In this document: positions 18,001 through 24,000 of the stretch, piece after piece
Position numbering within the stretch: position 1 is the first letter of the stretch
How the letters are laid out: each line of letters begins with the position of its first letter
Source: Actinobacteria bacterium UBA7524
Lineage (GTDB): Bacteria; Actinomycetota; Coriobacteriia; Anaerosomatales; UBA912
Direction: 5' to 3'
Assembly: GCA_002478275.1 (NCBI GenBank)
Contig: DLMY01000031.1
Span: forward strand, 124,001 to 149,919
DNA: 25,919 bases
Program-made: the position numbers

Positions 18001-21000
18001 CTGTGTGTGGTGACGTGTCCGTCAGGGGCGATAGGGTGGTGCAGATGAGGGCCGATTTCGATCTCGTGGTGTGCGGTCTGGGCGGCCAGGGTATCCTTAC
18101 GTGCGCTAACGCAGTAGCGCATGCAGCGGCACTCGAAGGATCTGATGTCTTGGCTACCGAACTCGTTGGTTTGGGACAGAGGGGCGGCTCTGTGACAGCG
18201 CATGTTCGGGTAGCTGAACGTGTCGTGTCGCCACGAATCCCGGCCGGTCAGGCCGATGTGATGCTTGCGCTCGATCGTTTCGAGGCGGCGCGAAATGCGC
18301 ATAGTGTGTCACCGGAAGGTCTGATGTTGGTGATGTCGTACGAATTGACACCGAACAGCGTTGCGCTCGGACTGAGCGATGAGTCAGAGCCAGATGCGGG
18401 GCTCGCGATTGACACGTTGCGGGCCGCCGGAATGAGAATCATCGAACTTCCCTACACACCCGAGGTCGGACGAATGAACGTGTATGCGTTGGGAGCCCTC
18501 TCCGTTGCACTTCCCTTCAACGAGGGGTGTTGGTCGGCAGTCCTTGGCAATCTGCCTCATTCGCAGGGGGGTGCTGAGAGCCCGCTCAGTGCTTTCGAAT
18601 CAGGACGGGCCGACGCTGTAGCACGGATAGATGATTGACCTTCTTCCCTCGCGGGGTGTACGCTTCCGCCTAACCTTCGTACCAGCATGAAGGCGAATAT
18701 CGGAGCACAAGAGACGTGAGGGAAGAGAGCATCATCCGCTCAGCCACCCCTCCCATGTCTTTCGCCAGGGCGGTGCGCACGCGCAGCCGGAAGCGGATCG
18801 GCGCCGGACCGGTATCCCGGCACAAAGAGGTCTGCACGAGCCAGTTGGTCGTGTGGACGAAGATAGGTGGTACCGCGACCGACCCCTCGCCCTATCGGCG
18901 GAAGGGGTCGTTTTGTTTCCTCGGCGGGAGATGATGAGATGGGTACCGCAAGAGTGGTGTTCGACAAGTGGGAAGGGCGCTACGCGCAGCGCATGGATGA
19001 CGTGCGATCGAGCGCGGTGCGCGACCTGTTCGGGGCGGCGAGCCGTCCGGACGTGATCAGTCTGTCGGGCGGGATGCCCGAGGTCAGCCGCGTGCCGACG
19101 CATACTGTTGCCGACGTGGCGCATTGGGCGGTCGCACACAAGGGCGCTGTCGCGCTTCAGTACGGAAGCAGCGAGGGGAGGCGCGAGCTGCGCGATGTCA
19201 TCGTAGAGCTGATGGCGGAGACGGGCGTGCGTCTGAAGGCCGACGAGGTCGTGGTGACCGCCGGTGCGCAGCAGGCACTCGACCTGATAGCGAAGATCTT
19301 CCTCGACCCCGGGGACGTGGTGATCGCCGAGGGGCCGACGTACCTGGGTGCGCTGCAGGCGTTCTCGGCGTACCAGCCCGACGTGCGCTGCATCCCGATG
19401 GACGACGACGGCATGCGCATGGACCTGCTCGAAGCCGAGCTTGAGCGACTCGGGCCGCGTGGTGCGAAGTTCATCTACACCATTCCGAACTTCCAGAACC
19501 CTGCGGGAGTGACGCTTTCGGCCGAGCGCAGGCGGCGGTTACTCGAGCTGTCGCGCGAGTACGACATCCCGGTGGTCGAGGACGACCCTTACGGGCGCCT
19601 TCGCTTCGAGGGCGGGCACATCAAGCCGCTTCGGGCGCTGGATCCCGAGGTCATCTACCTGGGTACCTTCTCGAAGGTCTTCGCGCCGGGACTTCGACTG
19701 GGCTGGATCACCGCGCCCAAGCCGGTGCTTGCGAAGTTCATCCTGGCCAAGCAGGCGGCGGACCTGTGCGGCAGCGCGTTCGCCCAGGTCACGGCGGAGC
19801 GGTACTTCGCGGCTACTCGCTGGCGCCGTGTGCTGCAAAGCCTCACGAAGACCTACGGCGAGCGACGCGATGCGATGCTCTCCGCGCTCGAGGAGCACTT
19901 CCCGCCCGAGGCGCGCTGGACCCATCCGGAGGGCGGGTTCTTCGTCTGGGTGGAGCTGCCGTCATTCCTCGACACCGGCGCGATGCTCGCCGAGGCGGTC
20001 GAGTGCGGAGTCACGTACGTGCCGGGCGACTCGTTCTACCCTGACGGCCGCGGACGCAACTGTATGCGCCTGGCCTTCTGCTACGCTGAGCCCGAGCGGA
20101 TCGAAGAAGGTATACGCAGGCTCGCCGAGGCGCTCGATGACCGTCTTCACCTGTACCGCGCATTCATCGCCGCAGGGGCCATACCTGCCGAGGAGGGAGC
20201 AGCATGAGCAGAGAGAAGGTAGCCGTCCTGATGGGCGGGCGCTCGCTCGAGCGCGACGTCTCGCTCAGAAGCGGCAAGCGGGTCTGCGAGGCGCTCGAGG
20301 CCGCGGGGCACAAGGTACTCGCCCTGGACGTGACCGCGGACCTGGTCTCGACGTTGCGGGCCGAGCGCCCGGACGCCTGCTACATCGCGCTTCACGGCAA
20401 GTACGGTGAGGACGGGACGATACAGGAGCTGTTGGAGTTCCTCGGCATTCCGTATACGGGGCCAGGGGTCGTCTCGTGTTCGCTCTCGTGGGACAAGTCC
20501 CTTGCCAAGCGGTTGTTCGTGGAGGCGGGGATACCGACACCTGCGTGGGTCACGTTGACGGCAGACGCGTTCAAGGAGATGGGGGCGGCGACCGCGCTCG
20601 ACCTGATTCCTGACGAGGTCGGGGGTCTTCCCGTGGTGGTTAAGCCCTCCAAGCAGGGCTCGGCGCTCGGGCTTTCGCGTGTCGACGAAGCCGGCGGGCT
20701 GGCAGAAGCGCTTCTCAACGCGCTGAGCTACAGCGATGCGGCGCTGGTCGAGAAGTGGGTGGACGGCTGTGTCGTGGCGGTCTCGGTCTTCGACGGCGAT
20801 GACGGGCCGTTGGTGTTGCCGCCGGTGGAGATAGTCGCACACAGTGGGCTGTTCGACTTCAATGCGATGTACACGGCCGGGGAGACCGACTACTACGTGC
20901 CCGCGCGACTTGACGATGACGTCGCCGCACGGGTCATCGAGGTAGCGGGCAAGGCGCATACGCTCATGGAGTGCCGGGACGTATCCCGCGTGGACCTCAT

Positions 21001-24000
21001 AGTGGACCCGCAAGGCGGCGTGCACGTGCTGGAGTGCAACACCTCTCCGGGCATGACGGAGACCTCGCTTCTGCCCATGGCCGCCGAGGCCGCCGGTATG
21101 AGTTTCCAGGATGTGGTGGAAAGACTCTTGCACGCAGCGCTGGCAAGGAGATAATCGTCCTGCTGATGTGGCGTGATTCGGGTACATACCTATGTGCGCG
21201 GGTGTTGGTCGGCCGCGCGTCAGATGTCTGTCCGGCCTCGAAGACGGAGGTGCGCAAGTATGTACGACTACAGGCGTGGTGGTGGTGTTCTGGGGGCGTT
21301 CCTCCTGGGCGGCGCGATAGGGGCGGTGCTCGGGTTGTTGTTCGCGCCGCGTTCCGGTAAGGAGAGCCGAGAGATGCTCGCCGAGGCCGCTGAGAAGTAC
21401 TGGACTGAAGGCAAGGAGCTCTACGAGACGGGCGTCACGAAGGTCACGGACGTCTACGAGACCGGCGTCGCTAAAGTGACTGACGTCTATGAGACTGGCC
21501 GTGAGGTCGCGGCCGAGAAGACCGAGGAGCTGCGAGACAAGATCGATGCTGCCCGTGATCGTCTCAAGGAGCAGGTAGGTTCAGCGTCCGGTGCTGCCCG
21601 CGAGAAGGTCGCCGAGGCCGTTCCCGCAGCGAAGGAAGCCGCTCACAAGGCTGCAGACGCTGTGAAGAGCGGTGCCGAAGTGGCCGAGAAGAAAGCCCAG
21701 GAGACTCTGGACATCGTCGCGGAGAAGGCCGCCCCGAAGGCGCCGCCAGCACCGGCTGCCGAGCCTGGCGGGGATCTTCCGGCGGTATAGGGACCCCACC
21801 TGAGATCAGATACGCGGCGGGCCGGAGACGTATGCGCTCCGGCCCGCTTGTTGTACGCTTCCAGACATGCCTCTGACCGATGACATCCAGGGACTATCGC
21901 TCTTCGACACCCACGGCAAGCCGGCGGGTGAAGTAACGCACGTGCTCTTCCATCCACGCGAGCCACGTGCCGTGGGCCTTCAGGTACAGCCTCCCGCTTT
22001 CGCCTACGTCATCGCGCGCAAGCCCCGCTTCCTCCCGCTGTCCGAGGTGCGCCTCGGTGCGCAGCGCGTGACACTGCTCTCAGCCAGGCCTCAGTGGGGG
22101 AGGGCGGCCGAGAAGGAACAGGGCTTCGCATGGGACGATTCGGTCATCTGGCGCCTCATGCCGGTGTTCACCGAAGATGGCAGGCACTTGGGGCTGGTGA
22201 AGGACGTCGGTGTCTCCTCGGCGGATGGCGGTGTGGAGAGCCTGGTGCTCACCGGCGGCGCGGCGGCCGATATCGCCGTGGGCAGGCAGACGATTCCGGG
22301 CGACCTGGTCGTAGGTTTCGATCCGGAGCGCACCGTGGTGCTTGTCGCCGGCGAAGCGGCGGCTCAGGAGCTTCCCGGTGGCGTCGCCGCCGTGGCGGGC
22401 AGGGGGGCGGCTGTCGCGAAGGCTGCGGCAGGTGCCGCTGCGAAGACGGCTTTGGCCGGCGCGGGTGCGGCAGCCCGTGCCGCAGCTCGTAGCGGGGTCG
22501 GGAAGACCGTGCGCAAGAAGACGTCGTCGGGCTGGCGTGCGTTCAAGGACGCCTACGCTGAAGGTCTGCGCGATGACGCGGACACCGATAGGGACGGCTG
22601 AGACACCATGCCGCGGCGATTGAAGCCTTTGGGTCTTGGGCATCTCGAGCGGCTGCCGAGCGAGTGTGCCAGCTGCGTGTTCTGGGAGAGCTCCCAGGCG
22701 CTCGAGGTGCGTTGCGGAGTGAGATGCGATGCCGACCGGCTGCGCGAGTGGCACCGGGCTGTCAGTGTGCAGTGGGGCGACCCGGGACGTGTGGCACTCG
22801 AAGACGACCAGGTCATGGGCTTCATCAAGTACGCTCCTCCCGAGTACTTCCCCCAGGCGCTCCATCTTCCGGGGGAGGTGACCCGCGAGCGCAGCGTGCT
22901 GATCGCCTGCATGCATATCCATGATGACGCCAGGCGTCACGGTCTCGGGTCCCTTCTGCTCAAGGCGGCGTTGCGCGATGTGAGCATGCACGGCGAGAAG
23001 ACGGTGTACGCGTACGCCTGCCCCCGAGCCACCGACATGACGGTCGAGCCGATGATCGGGATGGATTTCCTGCTCCGGAACGGCTTCGCCATCGCACATC
23101 CTCATCCCGCGTATCCACTGCTCAAGCTCGATATGCGCTCGCTCGTGCAGTGGACAGAGAACCTCGAGGCCGTCCTCGAGTCGTTGCGCATCCCATGGAC
23201 GGCCCGCAACAGGCTGCCTTCACCCTCCGTCGATGTGAGGGGAGGCCGCCGATGACCGGCGAGAAGCAGGGCCGTCCCGCCGGCGGGTCGGCGGAGCGCG
23301 TACGCGCGTTCCTGTCCATCGCCGGATACGCCGAGGAGATACTGACCTTCCAGGAATCGACCAAGACCGCTCAGATGGCCGCTGACGCTGCTGGCTGCGA
23401 GCTGGGCCAGATCGTCAAGTCGTTGGTGTTCGTCGCGGACGGCAAGGCGGTCCTCGCGTTGGTGGCAGGGGACAGGCGCGGGGATGATGCGGCCATCGCT
23501 CGGGAGATGGGGGCGGCGGCGGCCAAGATGGCCGATGCGGCCACTGTGCGTACGGCGACAGGGTATGCTATCGGAGGAGTCTCTCCGTTCGACCTGCCCG
23601 AAGGGCTTGCTGTCCTGGTAGACGATTCACTGGAGCGATTCGAGATCGTCTTTCCGGCGGCGGGTACCCCGAAGTCGATGGTGCGTATGCCACGAGAGGC
23701 TCTCGTGCGCATCACGGGTGGGCGCATGGCACGAATCTCGCAGTGAGGGACGTCATGGGGTCGTACACCGTAGAGCGTGTGCCTGAGCAGCGCTTCGGTC
23801 GACTGTATCTGTCGACCGTGGGGCTGCTTCTTGCTGCGCTCGTCGCGGTCTCGATACCCGCTTTCTCCTTCATCGATGTGAGCGTGGACGGGCAGAGAGC
23901 CAAGCTCCCTGCGGGGTCGACCGCGGGCGATGTCGCTTCGCTGCGGCTGATGGGCTCCTCGGCGGGGGACCTGGTCGACCGTGAGGGTGCGGTGATCGCT

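Follow-up and report, generated by a model that had tools for sequence, protein, structure and literature searches.

The window analysed here (the whole 25,919-nt stretch of DNA from Actinobacteria bacterium UBA7524) contains, at positions 18712-18918, a leader RNA that is very probably a tRNA-Ala-sensing transcription attenuator of two genes, one for an aminotransferase and one for a second D-Ala-D-Ala ligase (Ddl). This is the best explanation of the leader as a whole, and it is drawn from comparative sequence analysis. By the same comparison, the leader belongs to a group from uncultured Actinomycetota in which the predicted tRNA-binding arm is cut down, while a full-length arm stands before the same genes in another class. 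An alanine-specific T-box had been placed at contig positions 142711-142915 (18711-18915 of the window) in the preliminary description, and its presence there was confirmed, with all of the T-box domains in place and covarying.

T-box domains and distribution of the leader

The leader comprises a 49-nt Stem I, Stem II, a Stem IIA/B pseudoknot, Stem III, an antiterminator and an intrinsic terminator (Table 1). Its T-box pairing exceeds chance, with covariation in every T-box domain: across 50 aligned leaders 96.9% of cells were paired, as against only 39-53% in slid controls, and two-sided changes occurred in 20 of 40 pairs. In the pseudoknot 4 of the 5 pairs change on both sides, and the antiterminator helices (GAUAGG-UGGUACC-GCGA/UCGC-CCUAUC) carry compensatory changes in 7 and 8 sequences, with changes in A1. 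The Stem II loop is near-invariant (CAG in 107 and GGAA in 105 of 109 leaders). The variable position of the T-box bulge is U in all 109 short leaders, matching A73 of tRNA-Ala, and C in three long leaders; the tRNA-Ala(GGC) with A73 reported for this genome is indeed present. All 109 short leaders have G-C as the first A2 pair, and the genome's methionine-linked T-box likewise has G-C there. The assignment to a terminator type with a short Stem I also held: the hairpin and its U-tract overlap the antiterminator and are predicted to exclude it, the calculated folding energies being -21.2 kcal/mol for the terminator and -9.9 kcal/mol for the antiterminator.

Table 1. Positions in the window of the leader elements and the genes behind them.
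Feature	Position	Strand	Remarks
Promoter-like site	18635..18664	+	-35 TTGACC (18635-18640), 18-nt spacer, -10 TACGCT (18659-18664); putative function
Small 5' hairpin ahead of Stem I	18674..18693	+	Putative; sequence variable
Short Stem I, 49 nt	18712..18760	+	Helices 1-3 98-99.7% paired, two-sided changes
Spurious 72-codon ORF over leader	18716..18934	+	ORF found; length unconserved
Specifier GCC (Ala)	18743..18745	+	Followed by purine A18746 and A.C mismatch; 109 short and 24 long leaders
Stem II	18762..18796	+	3x4 purine-rich loop CAG/GGAA at S-turn position; helix 4 100% paired, two-sided changes
Stem IIA/B pseudoknot	18797..18821	+	F-box-like CCGGUA; helices 6-8
Stem III	18830..18858	+	Between purine strings; from fold, variable in alignment
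Antiterminator	18862..18896	+	7-nt T-box bulge UGGUACC (18868-18874); helices 9-10 100% paired
Intrinsic terminator	18880..18918	+	Hairpin 18880-18910, U-tract 18911-18918; excludes antiterminator
Class I PLP aminotransferase, 422 aa	18939..20207	+	PH0207/MsAT/LysN group (aminoadipate aminotransferase clade)
Second Ddl paralogue, 316 aa	20204..21154	+	Start overlaps aminotransferase stop (ATGA)

As for the promoter-like site upstream, 103 of the 109 leaders share its TTGACC and 108 have a -10 of the form TANNNT; a strict consensus promoter scan missed this site. Compared with shuffled sequences, the small 5' hairpin had a median z of -1.4, and 42% of 108 leaders fell below -1.5. As had been noted, the Rfam T-box model scores the leader far below its gathering cut-off (24.5 bits against 93, E 0.00145, when the genome itself was searched), and a cmscan of the whole window left it unmatched at E<=1. 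The 72-aa call over the leader, which had been described as false, corresponds to an existing open reading frame; from the same GUG this frame runs for fewer than 10 to at least 100 codons among 109 leaders, and with a length that varies so widely it is not a conserved gene.

We built a model of the leader and found one strong match per genome in 127 of the 146 genomes of the order, 122 of the 127 directly upstream of the aminotransferase, in agreement with the earlier claim that leader and operon are kept together across the order. Of 45 named loci (at least 69% identity), 42 have the ddl paralogue directly behind the aminotransferase; the earlier figure of 104 of 145 was not reproduced from a list of the best 150 matches. 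There were no short-stem paralogues before other genes: the 11 weaker full-length R1 matches that were retrieved and the 2 partial ones are long canonical T-boxes. A pattern search of 40 loci in Coriobacteriales and other classes found no T-box before the gene, nor did an Rfam scan of 20 of these 40, and none precedes it in Eggerthellaceae or in distant homologues. In a metagenome pattern scan, whose matches were mostly chance, the antiterminator was found in 12 of the 80 loci listed and before no other gene. The alaS gene of this genome has no T-box.

The aminotransferase and the second ligase

The solved proteins closest to the aminotransferase are, as reported, broad-substrate enzymes of the PH0207, MsAT and LysN types (the six best match at E 1e-113 to 1e-78, and one of them is an alanine:glyoxylate transaminase). 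It reaches no family cut-off in NCBIfam, and the curated alanine-aminotransferase models also score it below theirs (NF006967 (AvtA), 106 against 402 bits, E 1.9e-30; NF006230, 94.8 against 534). PMC9309667 places the alanine-forming AvtA of E. coli in the aminoadipate aminotransferase clade, and PMC9986279 assigns PH0207, the best solved relative, to a group characterised as aromatic or kynurenine aminotransferases. Homologues of the window's enzyme occur in 127 of 201 sampled genomes (a count that includes the unpublished G380 and G385). An argument against alanine formation by this enzyme is that alanine dehydrogenase exceeds its cut-off in 109 of the 146 genomes of the order. The substrate cannot be read from the sequence, and it is the regulation that suggests an alanine aminotransferase; we consider it reasonably likely that the enzyme accepts pyruvate and forms L-alanine.

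The ligase exceeds the cut-offs of NF002378 and TIGR01205 and keeps the equivalents of Glu15, His63, Ser150, Arg255 and Tyr216, i.e. a canonical D-Ala site. At the omega-loop position of E. coli DdlB Lys215, a lysine with a role in phosphate binding, it has Met; Met or Arg replaces this Lys in 35 of 36 rows of the regulated clade, and Lys is kept in 11 of 11 other copies. In this one ligase the Glu187 equivalent is Val. At least two ddl matches are present in 125 of the order's 146 genomes, and a canonical Lys-Tyr Ddl accompanies the paralogue in those complete genomes that were tested. By these sequence features, the regulated ligase is a second, phylum-wide Ddl paralogue and not the housekeeping enzyme, and its link to peptidoglycan would therefore be indirect. 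Of the proposal that the T-box serves alanine supply for peptidoglycan, the alanine specificity stood and the peptidoglycan step was weakened by the separate Ddl clade, the multiple ddl copies and an alanine racemase gene located away from the operon.

These properties could also be read as follows: the T-box is specific for alanine, the aminotransferase is a broad (aromatic or aminoadipate) enzyme, and the key module in alanine shortage is a variant Ddl, e.g. one with a higher affinity for D-Ala or with another second substrate that spares alanine. The altered omega loop of a distinct clade, the broad substrates of the closest solved aminotransferases and the phylum-wide adjacency of aminotransferase and ddl paralogue (seen at 39 of 40 loci from outside both T-box groups) all favour this, as does a PhzF-family gene that separates the two at 12 of the 46 loci in the other class. 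We rate it as possible but rather unlikely, given that the remaining D-Ala-site residues are canonical and that at two of 45 loci, L049 and L061, the T-box still precedes the aminotransferase although ddl is now located elsewhere. We tried the PhzF-like gene as a two-cysteine racemase and rejected it: the second Cys motif is absent in all 11 readable sequences of the 12, and the first Cys is present in 4. Against our preferred reading, in which the T-box primarily serves the aminotransferase, it is not obvious why a D-Ala-consuming ligase should be induced under alanine shortage.

Long-stem orthologues and the specifier

In the class of G416, 24 of the 46 regions upstream of the orthologous gene contain a complete canonical Stem I of 90-117 nt, with the AG bulge and terminal loop (the double T-loop) in all 24; the G416 leader itself scores 101.8 bits on the Rfam T-box model. 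The short Stem I, of about 50 nt, consists of a basal helix, a 3' bulge and a U bulge in place of the K-turn, a GAGGG/CCCUC helix, a 4x6 specifier loop, a 4-bp top helix and a variable apical loop (4-13 nt in 108 of 109 leaders, with a 55-nt insertion in one). It lacks the AG bulge and the T-loops. The K-turn 3' strand is missing from all 109 short leaders, and the GA of Stem I forms Watson-Crick pairs with UC, leaving neither K-turn nor S-turn. The short form most likely arose by deletion from a long canonical Ala T-box of the same gene.

A leader shortened in this way might be a decaying relic that has stopped responding to tRNA, its only remaining effect being a constant level of read-through. 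The losses of the double T-loop, K-turn and S-turn and the G-C first A2 pair would fit this, and PMC7583486 (section 16) describes the double T-loop as generally required in transcriptional T-boxes; several lineages, moreover, retain the terminator hairpin alone. Two observations count against the attenuator reading as a whole: at least 6 genomes of the order and 22 of the 46 upstream regions in the G416 class have a missing or degraded leader, and three long leaders have the C at the variable position noted above. As to a relic, however, the specifier, bulge, Stem II loop and pseudoknot are near-invariant, with compensatory changes, in 109 leaders of many families whose flanking loops vary freely, and the methionine-linked T-box shares the G-C pair, so that we regard a relic as improbable. 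Control of translation, as in those T-boxes with a short or intermediate stem that are known from Actinomycetota, is more improbable still: the ribosome-binding site lies outside the terminator hairpin at a variable distance (the start codon is 39-113 nt downstream in 118 genomes), at least 5 U fall within 9 nt past the stem in 86 of 105 leaders, and the long orthologues share the terminator layout.

The preliminary description had GCC-A in 21 of 21 leaders; GCC was found in all 109 short leaders, and the next base is A in 107 and G in 2. It had also assigned one register to all of the genome's T-boxes. The other three do have the specifiers AUC, AUG and UUC, in leaders which we take, from the N-termini of the genes, to be those of ileS, met and pheS. 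The register is not identical, because the covariation of GAGGG/CCCUC to GACGG/CCGUC in 2 of 50 leaders puts the C directly after GCC-A outside the helix, facing an A. This is one base off the other three, and CCA becomes readable. A helix register pairing GGG with the first CCC was rejected, as it is broken in these two sequences. Taken alone, the short form is therefore ambiguous between GCC (Ala) and CCA (Pro).

The long orthologues settle the Ala register. We compared long and short Stem I by counting back from the K-turn, since MAFFT alignment of the two slipped in the C-run, and this gave GCC in 24 of 24. Facing the 5' A, 20 of these have U and 2 have C, which means that the A.C mismatch is not confined to the short form. 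A proline specifier agrees with the covariation-derived helix register, with the TBDB default rule (bases 2-4 from the bulge end), with the two A-to-G variants (CCG, also Pro) and with A73, which fits tRNA-Pro too, but it is scarcely credible and largely refuted by the 24 long orthologues, in which A-U closes the helix in 20 and the Pro-frame triplet varies (CCA, CCG, CCC), and it would have C as 3' stacking base, demand a U34 tRNA and control an operon with no proline gene. Two further readings were discarded: Ile, from AUC in the apical loop, which varies in length and sequence among relatives, and Gly or Ser, one base upstream, where A and G are about equally frequent and the T-box bulge has U. 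PMC7583486 describes the Stem II S-turn as favouring G34 and hence a C-ending specifier.

Proposed mechanism and comparison with known T-boxes

We propose that transcription would start near 18671 and that the GCC specifier would pair with the GGC anticodon of tRNA-Ala. By analogy with Class III structures, Stem II and the IIA/B pseudoknot may make up for the missing elbow contact by bracing the codon-anticodon duplex. The ACCA 3' end of an uncharged tRNA would pair with UGGU, with U at the variable position facing A73, and the antiterminator held in this way would let RNA polymerase read into the aminotransferase gene and the coupled second ddl; with charged tRNA-Ala the stronger terminator would form. 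The aminotransferase is presumably the main target, the ddl paralogue riding in an older, phylum-wide operon. More tentatively, a T-box without double T-loop, K-turn and Stem I S-turn might switch in time by means of its non-consensus Stem II loop and G-C sensor pair, and the aminotransferase and Lys-less Ddl might work together during alanine starvation, with the ligase producing some other cell-wall dipeptide that spares alanine.

Full-text searches of the literature other than the main T-box surveys returned no Ala T-box before an aminotransferase or ddl, and no Coriobacteriia T-boxes. The Vitreschak 2008 and Sherwood 2015 surveys reportedly list putative transaminase genes of some Firmicutes among those preceded by Ala T-boxes, and an Ala T-box on a transaminase may therefore not be new in itself. 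The specifier ties the aminotransferase-ddl paralogue pair, found across Actinomycetota, to alanine status, which is a clue to its function. The long and short leaders are a matched natural pair, with the same operon, specifier and terminator, and the need for the double T-loop in fast tRNA binding by transcriptional T-boxes, as put forward in PMC7583486, can therefore be tested directly.

Compared by description, the leader is closest in architecture to Class IV, exemplified by Actinomyces odontolyticus ileS (classification of PMC10482949), with its intermediate Stem I lacking a double T-loop, a specifier placed where an internal or side loop separates two helices, and Stem II with a pseudoknot. 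It differs in its specifier (Ala, GCC, instead of Ile), its intrinsic terminator instead of a ribosome-site sequestrator, its aminotransferase operon instead of a synthetase gene, and the absence of a K-turn at the Stem I base; translational output and an ileS target are typical of Class IV but not absolute. The Stem II loop has the 3x4 size of the canonical S-turn (GAA/AGUA) and reads CAG/GGAA. In the reviews as cited here, a short form without a double T-loop is an atypical partner for a terminator. The architecture is thus extended beyond isoleucine and translation, in a form that Rfam misses. The specifier in a 5-6 nt apical loop that marks ultrashort Class III leaders does not apply, as the apical loop here (AUC) varies among relatives. 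With Class I transcriptional T-boxes (RF00230; B. subtilis tyrS) the leader shares Stem II, IIA/B, Stem III, the 7-nt bulge antiterminator and the terminator; it departs from them in having no AG bulge, no terminal T-loop and neither S-turn nor K-turn in Stem I, in its non-consensus Stem II loop, in the G-C that replaces the A2 G.U pair and in its low Rfam score. Its orthologues in the G416 class are full Class I members. The alaS T-boxes of B. subtilis and C. acetobutylicum, as described in PMC4695836, share the tRNA-Ala effector, the bulge U matching A73 and antitermination, but their specifier is GCU, their Stem I is long and their target is alanyl-tRNA synthetase. Among the enzymes, the aminotransferase shares the class I PLP fold and catalytic lysine motif with PH0207, MsAT, LysN and AvtA while reaching no curated cut-off, and the ligase shares family scores and D-Ala-site residues with E. 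coli DdlB and two-isozyme Ddl systems, from which its replaced Lys215 and separate clade set it apart.

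The leader and its operon

An Rfam scan of the whole window gave no T-box match at the leader, and the Rfam T-box model run on the genome of Actinobacteria bacterium UBA7524 (1.8 Mb, 83% complete) gave it 24.5 bits, where the cut-off is 93, in agreement with the sub-threshold score given in the preliminary description; three longer T-boxes were also found. We aligned 50 distinct leaders and counted pairing on a hand-drawn structure. Pairing was seen in 96.9% of 1997 cells and fell to 39-53% in a slid-partner control. Because the structure was drawn from the same 50 sequences, the two-sided changes carry the weight; these occurred at 20 of the 40 pairs, which none of 500 shuffles matched. 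Each of the three Stem I helices shows them, as do Stem II, the two helices of the pseudoknot and antiterminator helix A1. This covariation across T-box domains confirms that the leader is a real element and a T-box, as had been proposed, and the 72-codon ORF lying over it, which is not conserved among relatives, is indeed a false gene call.

Features of the locus (window positions)
Feature	Position	Remark
ABC permease, B12-binding radical SAM gene, divergent indolepyruvate oxidoreductase alpha and beta genes	12479-18638	immediately 5' of leader
Leader	18639-18938	region before aminotransferase
Class I PLP aminotransferase gene	18939-20207	
ddl-like gene	20204-21154	start overlaps aminotransferase stop
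YtxH-like, PRC-barrel, GNAT, tRNA-editing (YbaK-type) domain and polysaccharide deacetylase genes	21260-24918	conserved, 3' of operon

A covariance model of the leader found one strong match (95 bits or more) per genome in 127 of the 146 genomes of the order, and the aminotransferase gene lay directly 3' of 122 of these; four of the other five were near contig ends and one preceded a copy of the gene that was missing from our homologue listing but has a readable start. A TTGACC promoter-like motif lies 5' of the leader in 103 of 109 cases. Leader loss is recurrent, with only a terminator-like hairpin left in G143, G144, G145 and G009 and no leader in G085 and G086, and in Eggerthellaceae the aminotransferase-ddl pair is present with no T-box found. 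The hairpin is kept just 3' of the promoter at L082 (G143, where half of Stem I is retained and joined to the terminator), L093 (G145), L096 (G144), L157 (G009), L013 and L079, and the same aptamer loss with a retained hairpin is seen at L363, L365, L366, L370 and L381. At L152 (G104:C1:1369958-1370213) a 55-nt insertion with no obvious T-loop motifs enlarges the Stem I apical loop of the short form.

Of 45 named close loci, 42 have the aminotransferase and ddl genes side by side, in keeping with the conserved pairing claimed earlier; in another class, that of genome G416, 44 of 46 loci include ddl, and it accompanies the aminotransferase in 39 of 40 loci of further groups in which no T-box was seen. 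As the pair is kept in groups that show no T-box, the operon is far more widespread than the switch. At two loci (L049 and L061) ddl has moved away and the T-box is still with the aminotransferase. In 12 of the 46 G416-class loci (L350-L353, L356, L358, L360, L362, L365, L368, L379 and L382), though not in UBA7524, the two are separated by a gene for a PhzF-family isomerase. Its catalytic-type motifs vary, with Cys, Ala or an eroded site, and a second Cys is absent. At E<=1e-110 the aminotransferase was found in none of 79 genomes of f31, a large family of the class, and in none of 10 of family f28. The named records with aminotransferases of 69-84% identity were mostly metagenome assemblies of Coriobacteriia or Actinomycetota, and one of them bore the label Anaerosomatales.

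The genes immediately 5' of the leader are not the operon's usual neighbourhood and are possibly an insertion. The usual upstream neighbour is a stand-alone cyanophycin-synthetase N-terminal-like domain gene (PF18921; L013:2260-2835 and 45 of 75 loci), in place of which the window has iorA/iorB-like genes; in Eggerthellaceae the PF18921 gene abuts the aminotransferase gene with no leader between.

Specifier register and output

The loop of all 109 distinct short leaders contains GCC; the next base is A in 107 of them and G in 2. The variable position of the UGGN bulge is U in every one; UBA7524 encodes tRNA-Ala(GGC) with discriminator base A73. The lower Stem I helix, as set by covariation, is GAGGG/CCCUC. 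The earlier statement that GCC-A stands before a CCC stem is right as to GCC and, in 107 of the 109 leaders, the A, but one C after GCC-A is left unpaired. Applied to this helix, the TBDB default frame would read CCA, i.e. proline.

A phylum-wide covariance-model search gave a weak match in G416, which is a full-length canonical T-box (Rfam 101.8 bits) before the orthologous aminotransferase gene. This gene occurs in 46 of 48 genomes of that class, and we examined all 46 upstream regions; in 24 of them Stem I is complete, 90-117 nt long, and includes the K-turn, the AG bulge and the terminal loop. We located the triplet of these long forms by counting back from the K-turn, with no codon requested. 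It was GCC in all 24, and a purine came next in 23; the base after that formed an A-U pair in 20 and an A.C mismatch in 2, and the 5' strand GGGAAGAG is common to long and short forms. With this register, the mismatch also present there and the same 5' strand, the extra C of the short form reads as a mismatched helix end and its specifier as GCC (Ala). The long orthologues largely rule out the proline reading, and the alanine specifier of the preliminary description is upheld in both sets of leaders. Three long leaders (L383-L385; G444, G336, G445) have C rather than U at the variable position, a mismatch with A73.

Predicted folding gave -21.2 kcal/mol for the terminator versus -9.9 for the antiterminator, with bases common to both. 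Five or more U occur within nine bases after the stem in 86 of 105 leaders, and the gene starts 39-113 nt past the antiterminator, outside the hairpin (118 genomes). The matches of a strict terminator scan did not include the leader's terminator. Judged from sequence, the output of the leader is termination.

The operon enzymes and alanine

UBA7524 carries another ddl with a canonical Lys-Tyr loop, and two or more ddl matches are present in 125 of the 146 genomes of the order and in 9 of 10 tested outside it. In a tree of 47 proteins all 36 aminotransferase-adjacent ligases were grouped to the same side of a branch with support 100/97; the position of E. coli Lys215 is Met or Arg in 35 of these 36 and Lys in all 11 others. 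In the UBA7524 operon ligase the E. coli Glu187 position is Val, this Glu being missing in one other homologue among those checked. By its residues and placement, the operon ligase is not the housekeeping Ddl; the operon does hold a ddl-like gene, as described, but the proposed link to peptidoglycan becomes an indirect one. An alanine racemase gene lies elsewhere in the genome, and no T-box was found at its alaS.

The aminotransferase reached no NCBIfam family cut-off. Among solved proteins the closest to it are PH0207, MsAT, a Thermotoga enzyme, LysN and an alanine:glyoxylate transaminase. One study places the PH0207 group among aromatic or kynurenine aminotransferases (PMC9986279), and another puts the alanine-forming E. 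coli AvtA in an aminoadipate clade with KAT2 (PMC9309667). Alanine dehydrogenase is over its cut-off in 109 of the 146 genomes, so the aminotransferase need not be the sole alanine source; the dehydrogenase was not found in the incomplete UBA7524 assembly. The regulation points to a role in alanine supply, which is as far as the earlier naming of an alanine aminotransferase can be followed.

With sequence, covariation, register and gene order observed as described, we infer the switching and the substrates as follows. Alanine shortage would increase uncharged tRNA-Ala(GGC), which would pair with GCC and UGGU and hold the antiterminator, allowing transcription of the aminotransferase and the ddl paralogue; the aminotransferase would most likely aminate pyruvate.

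Comparison with known T-boxes

The short form has neither the double T-loop nor the Stem I S-turn, and a K-turn was found in none of 109 short leaders. Its Stem II loop has CAG/GGAA where GAA/AGUA is expected of the canonical form. At the first A2 pair all 109 short forms have G-C, versus G.U in 23 of the 24 long ones. The long form is retained in the other class, and the order's genomes have long T-boxes elsewhere, so the simplest history is that the long Stem I was lost in an ancestor of this order. A conserved T-box with AUG (Met) as specifier (UBA7524 C35:6515-6822; L141, L143, L145, L147, L148, L150, L158, L159, L347) likewise shows G-C at this A2 position in the order; the gene 3' of it we take, by its N-terminus, to belong to the DUF39 homocysteine-biosynthesis family. 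Long UGG (Trp) T-boxes occur in relatives (L140, L144, L149, L146, L348), before presumably trpE-like and TrpB2-like genes, with none in the UBA7524 assembly.

The short form falls outside RF00230 Class I on Stem I. Class IV T-boxes, as defined in PMC10482949, have a Stem I of intermediate length that lacks the double T-loop and are mostly translational, with ileS as an example; the short form departs from them in output and target. Its features suggest that it works like a Class IV-like aptamer joined to a Class I output. Our literature search, which did not extend to the main comparative surveys, returned no report of this element, and the accessible parts of PMC11477304 and PMC6522883 hold nothing on it. 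The system offers a matched long and short T-box pair on the same operon, and an alanine label for a widespread uncharacterised operon. The alanine T-boxes in the available sections of PMC4695836 and TBDB control alaS, a synthetase target, with specifier GCU, whereas the short form has GCC and an aminotransferase target.
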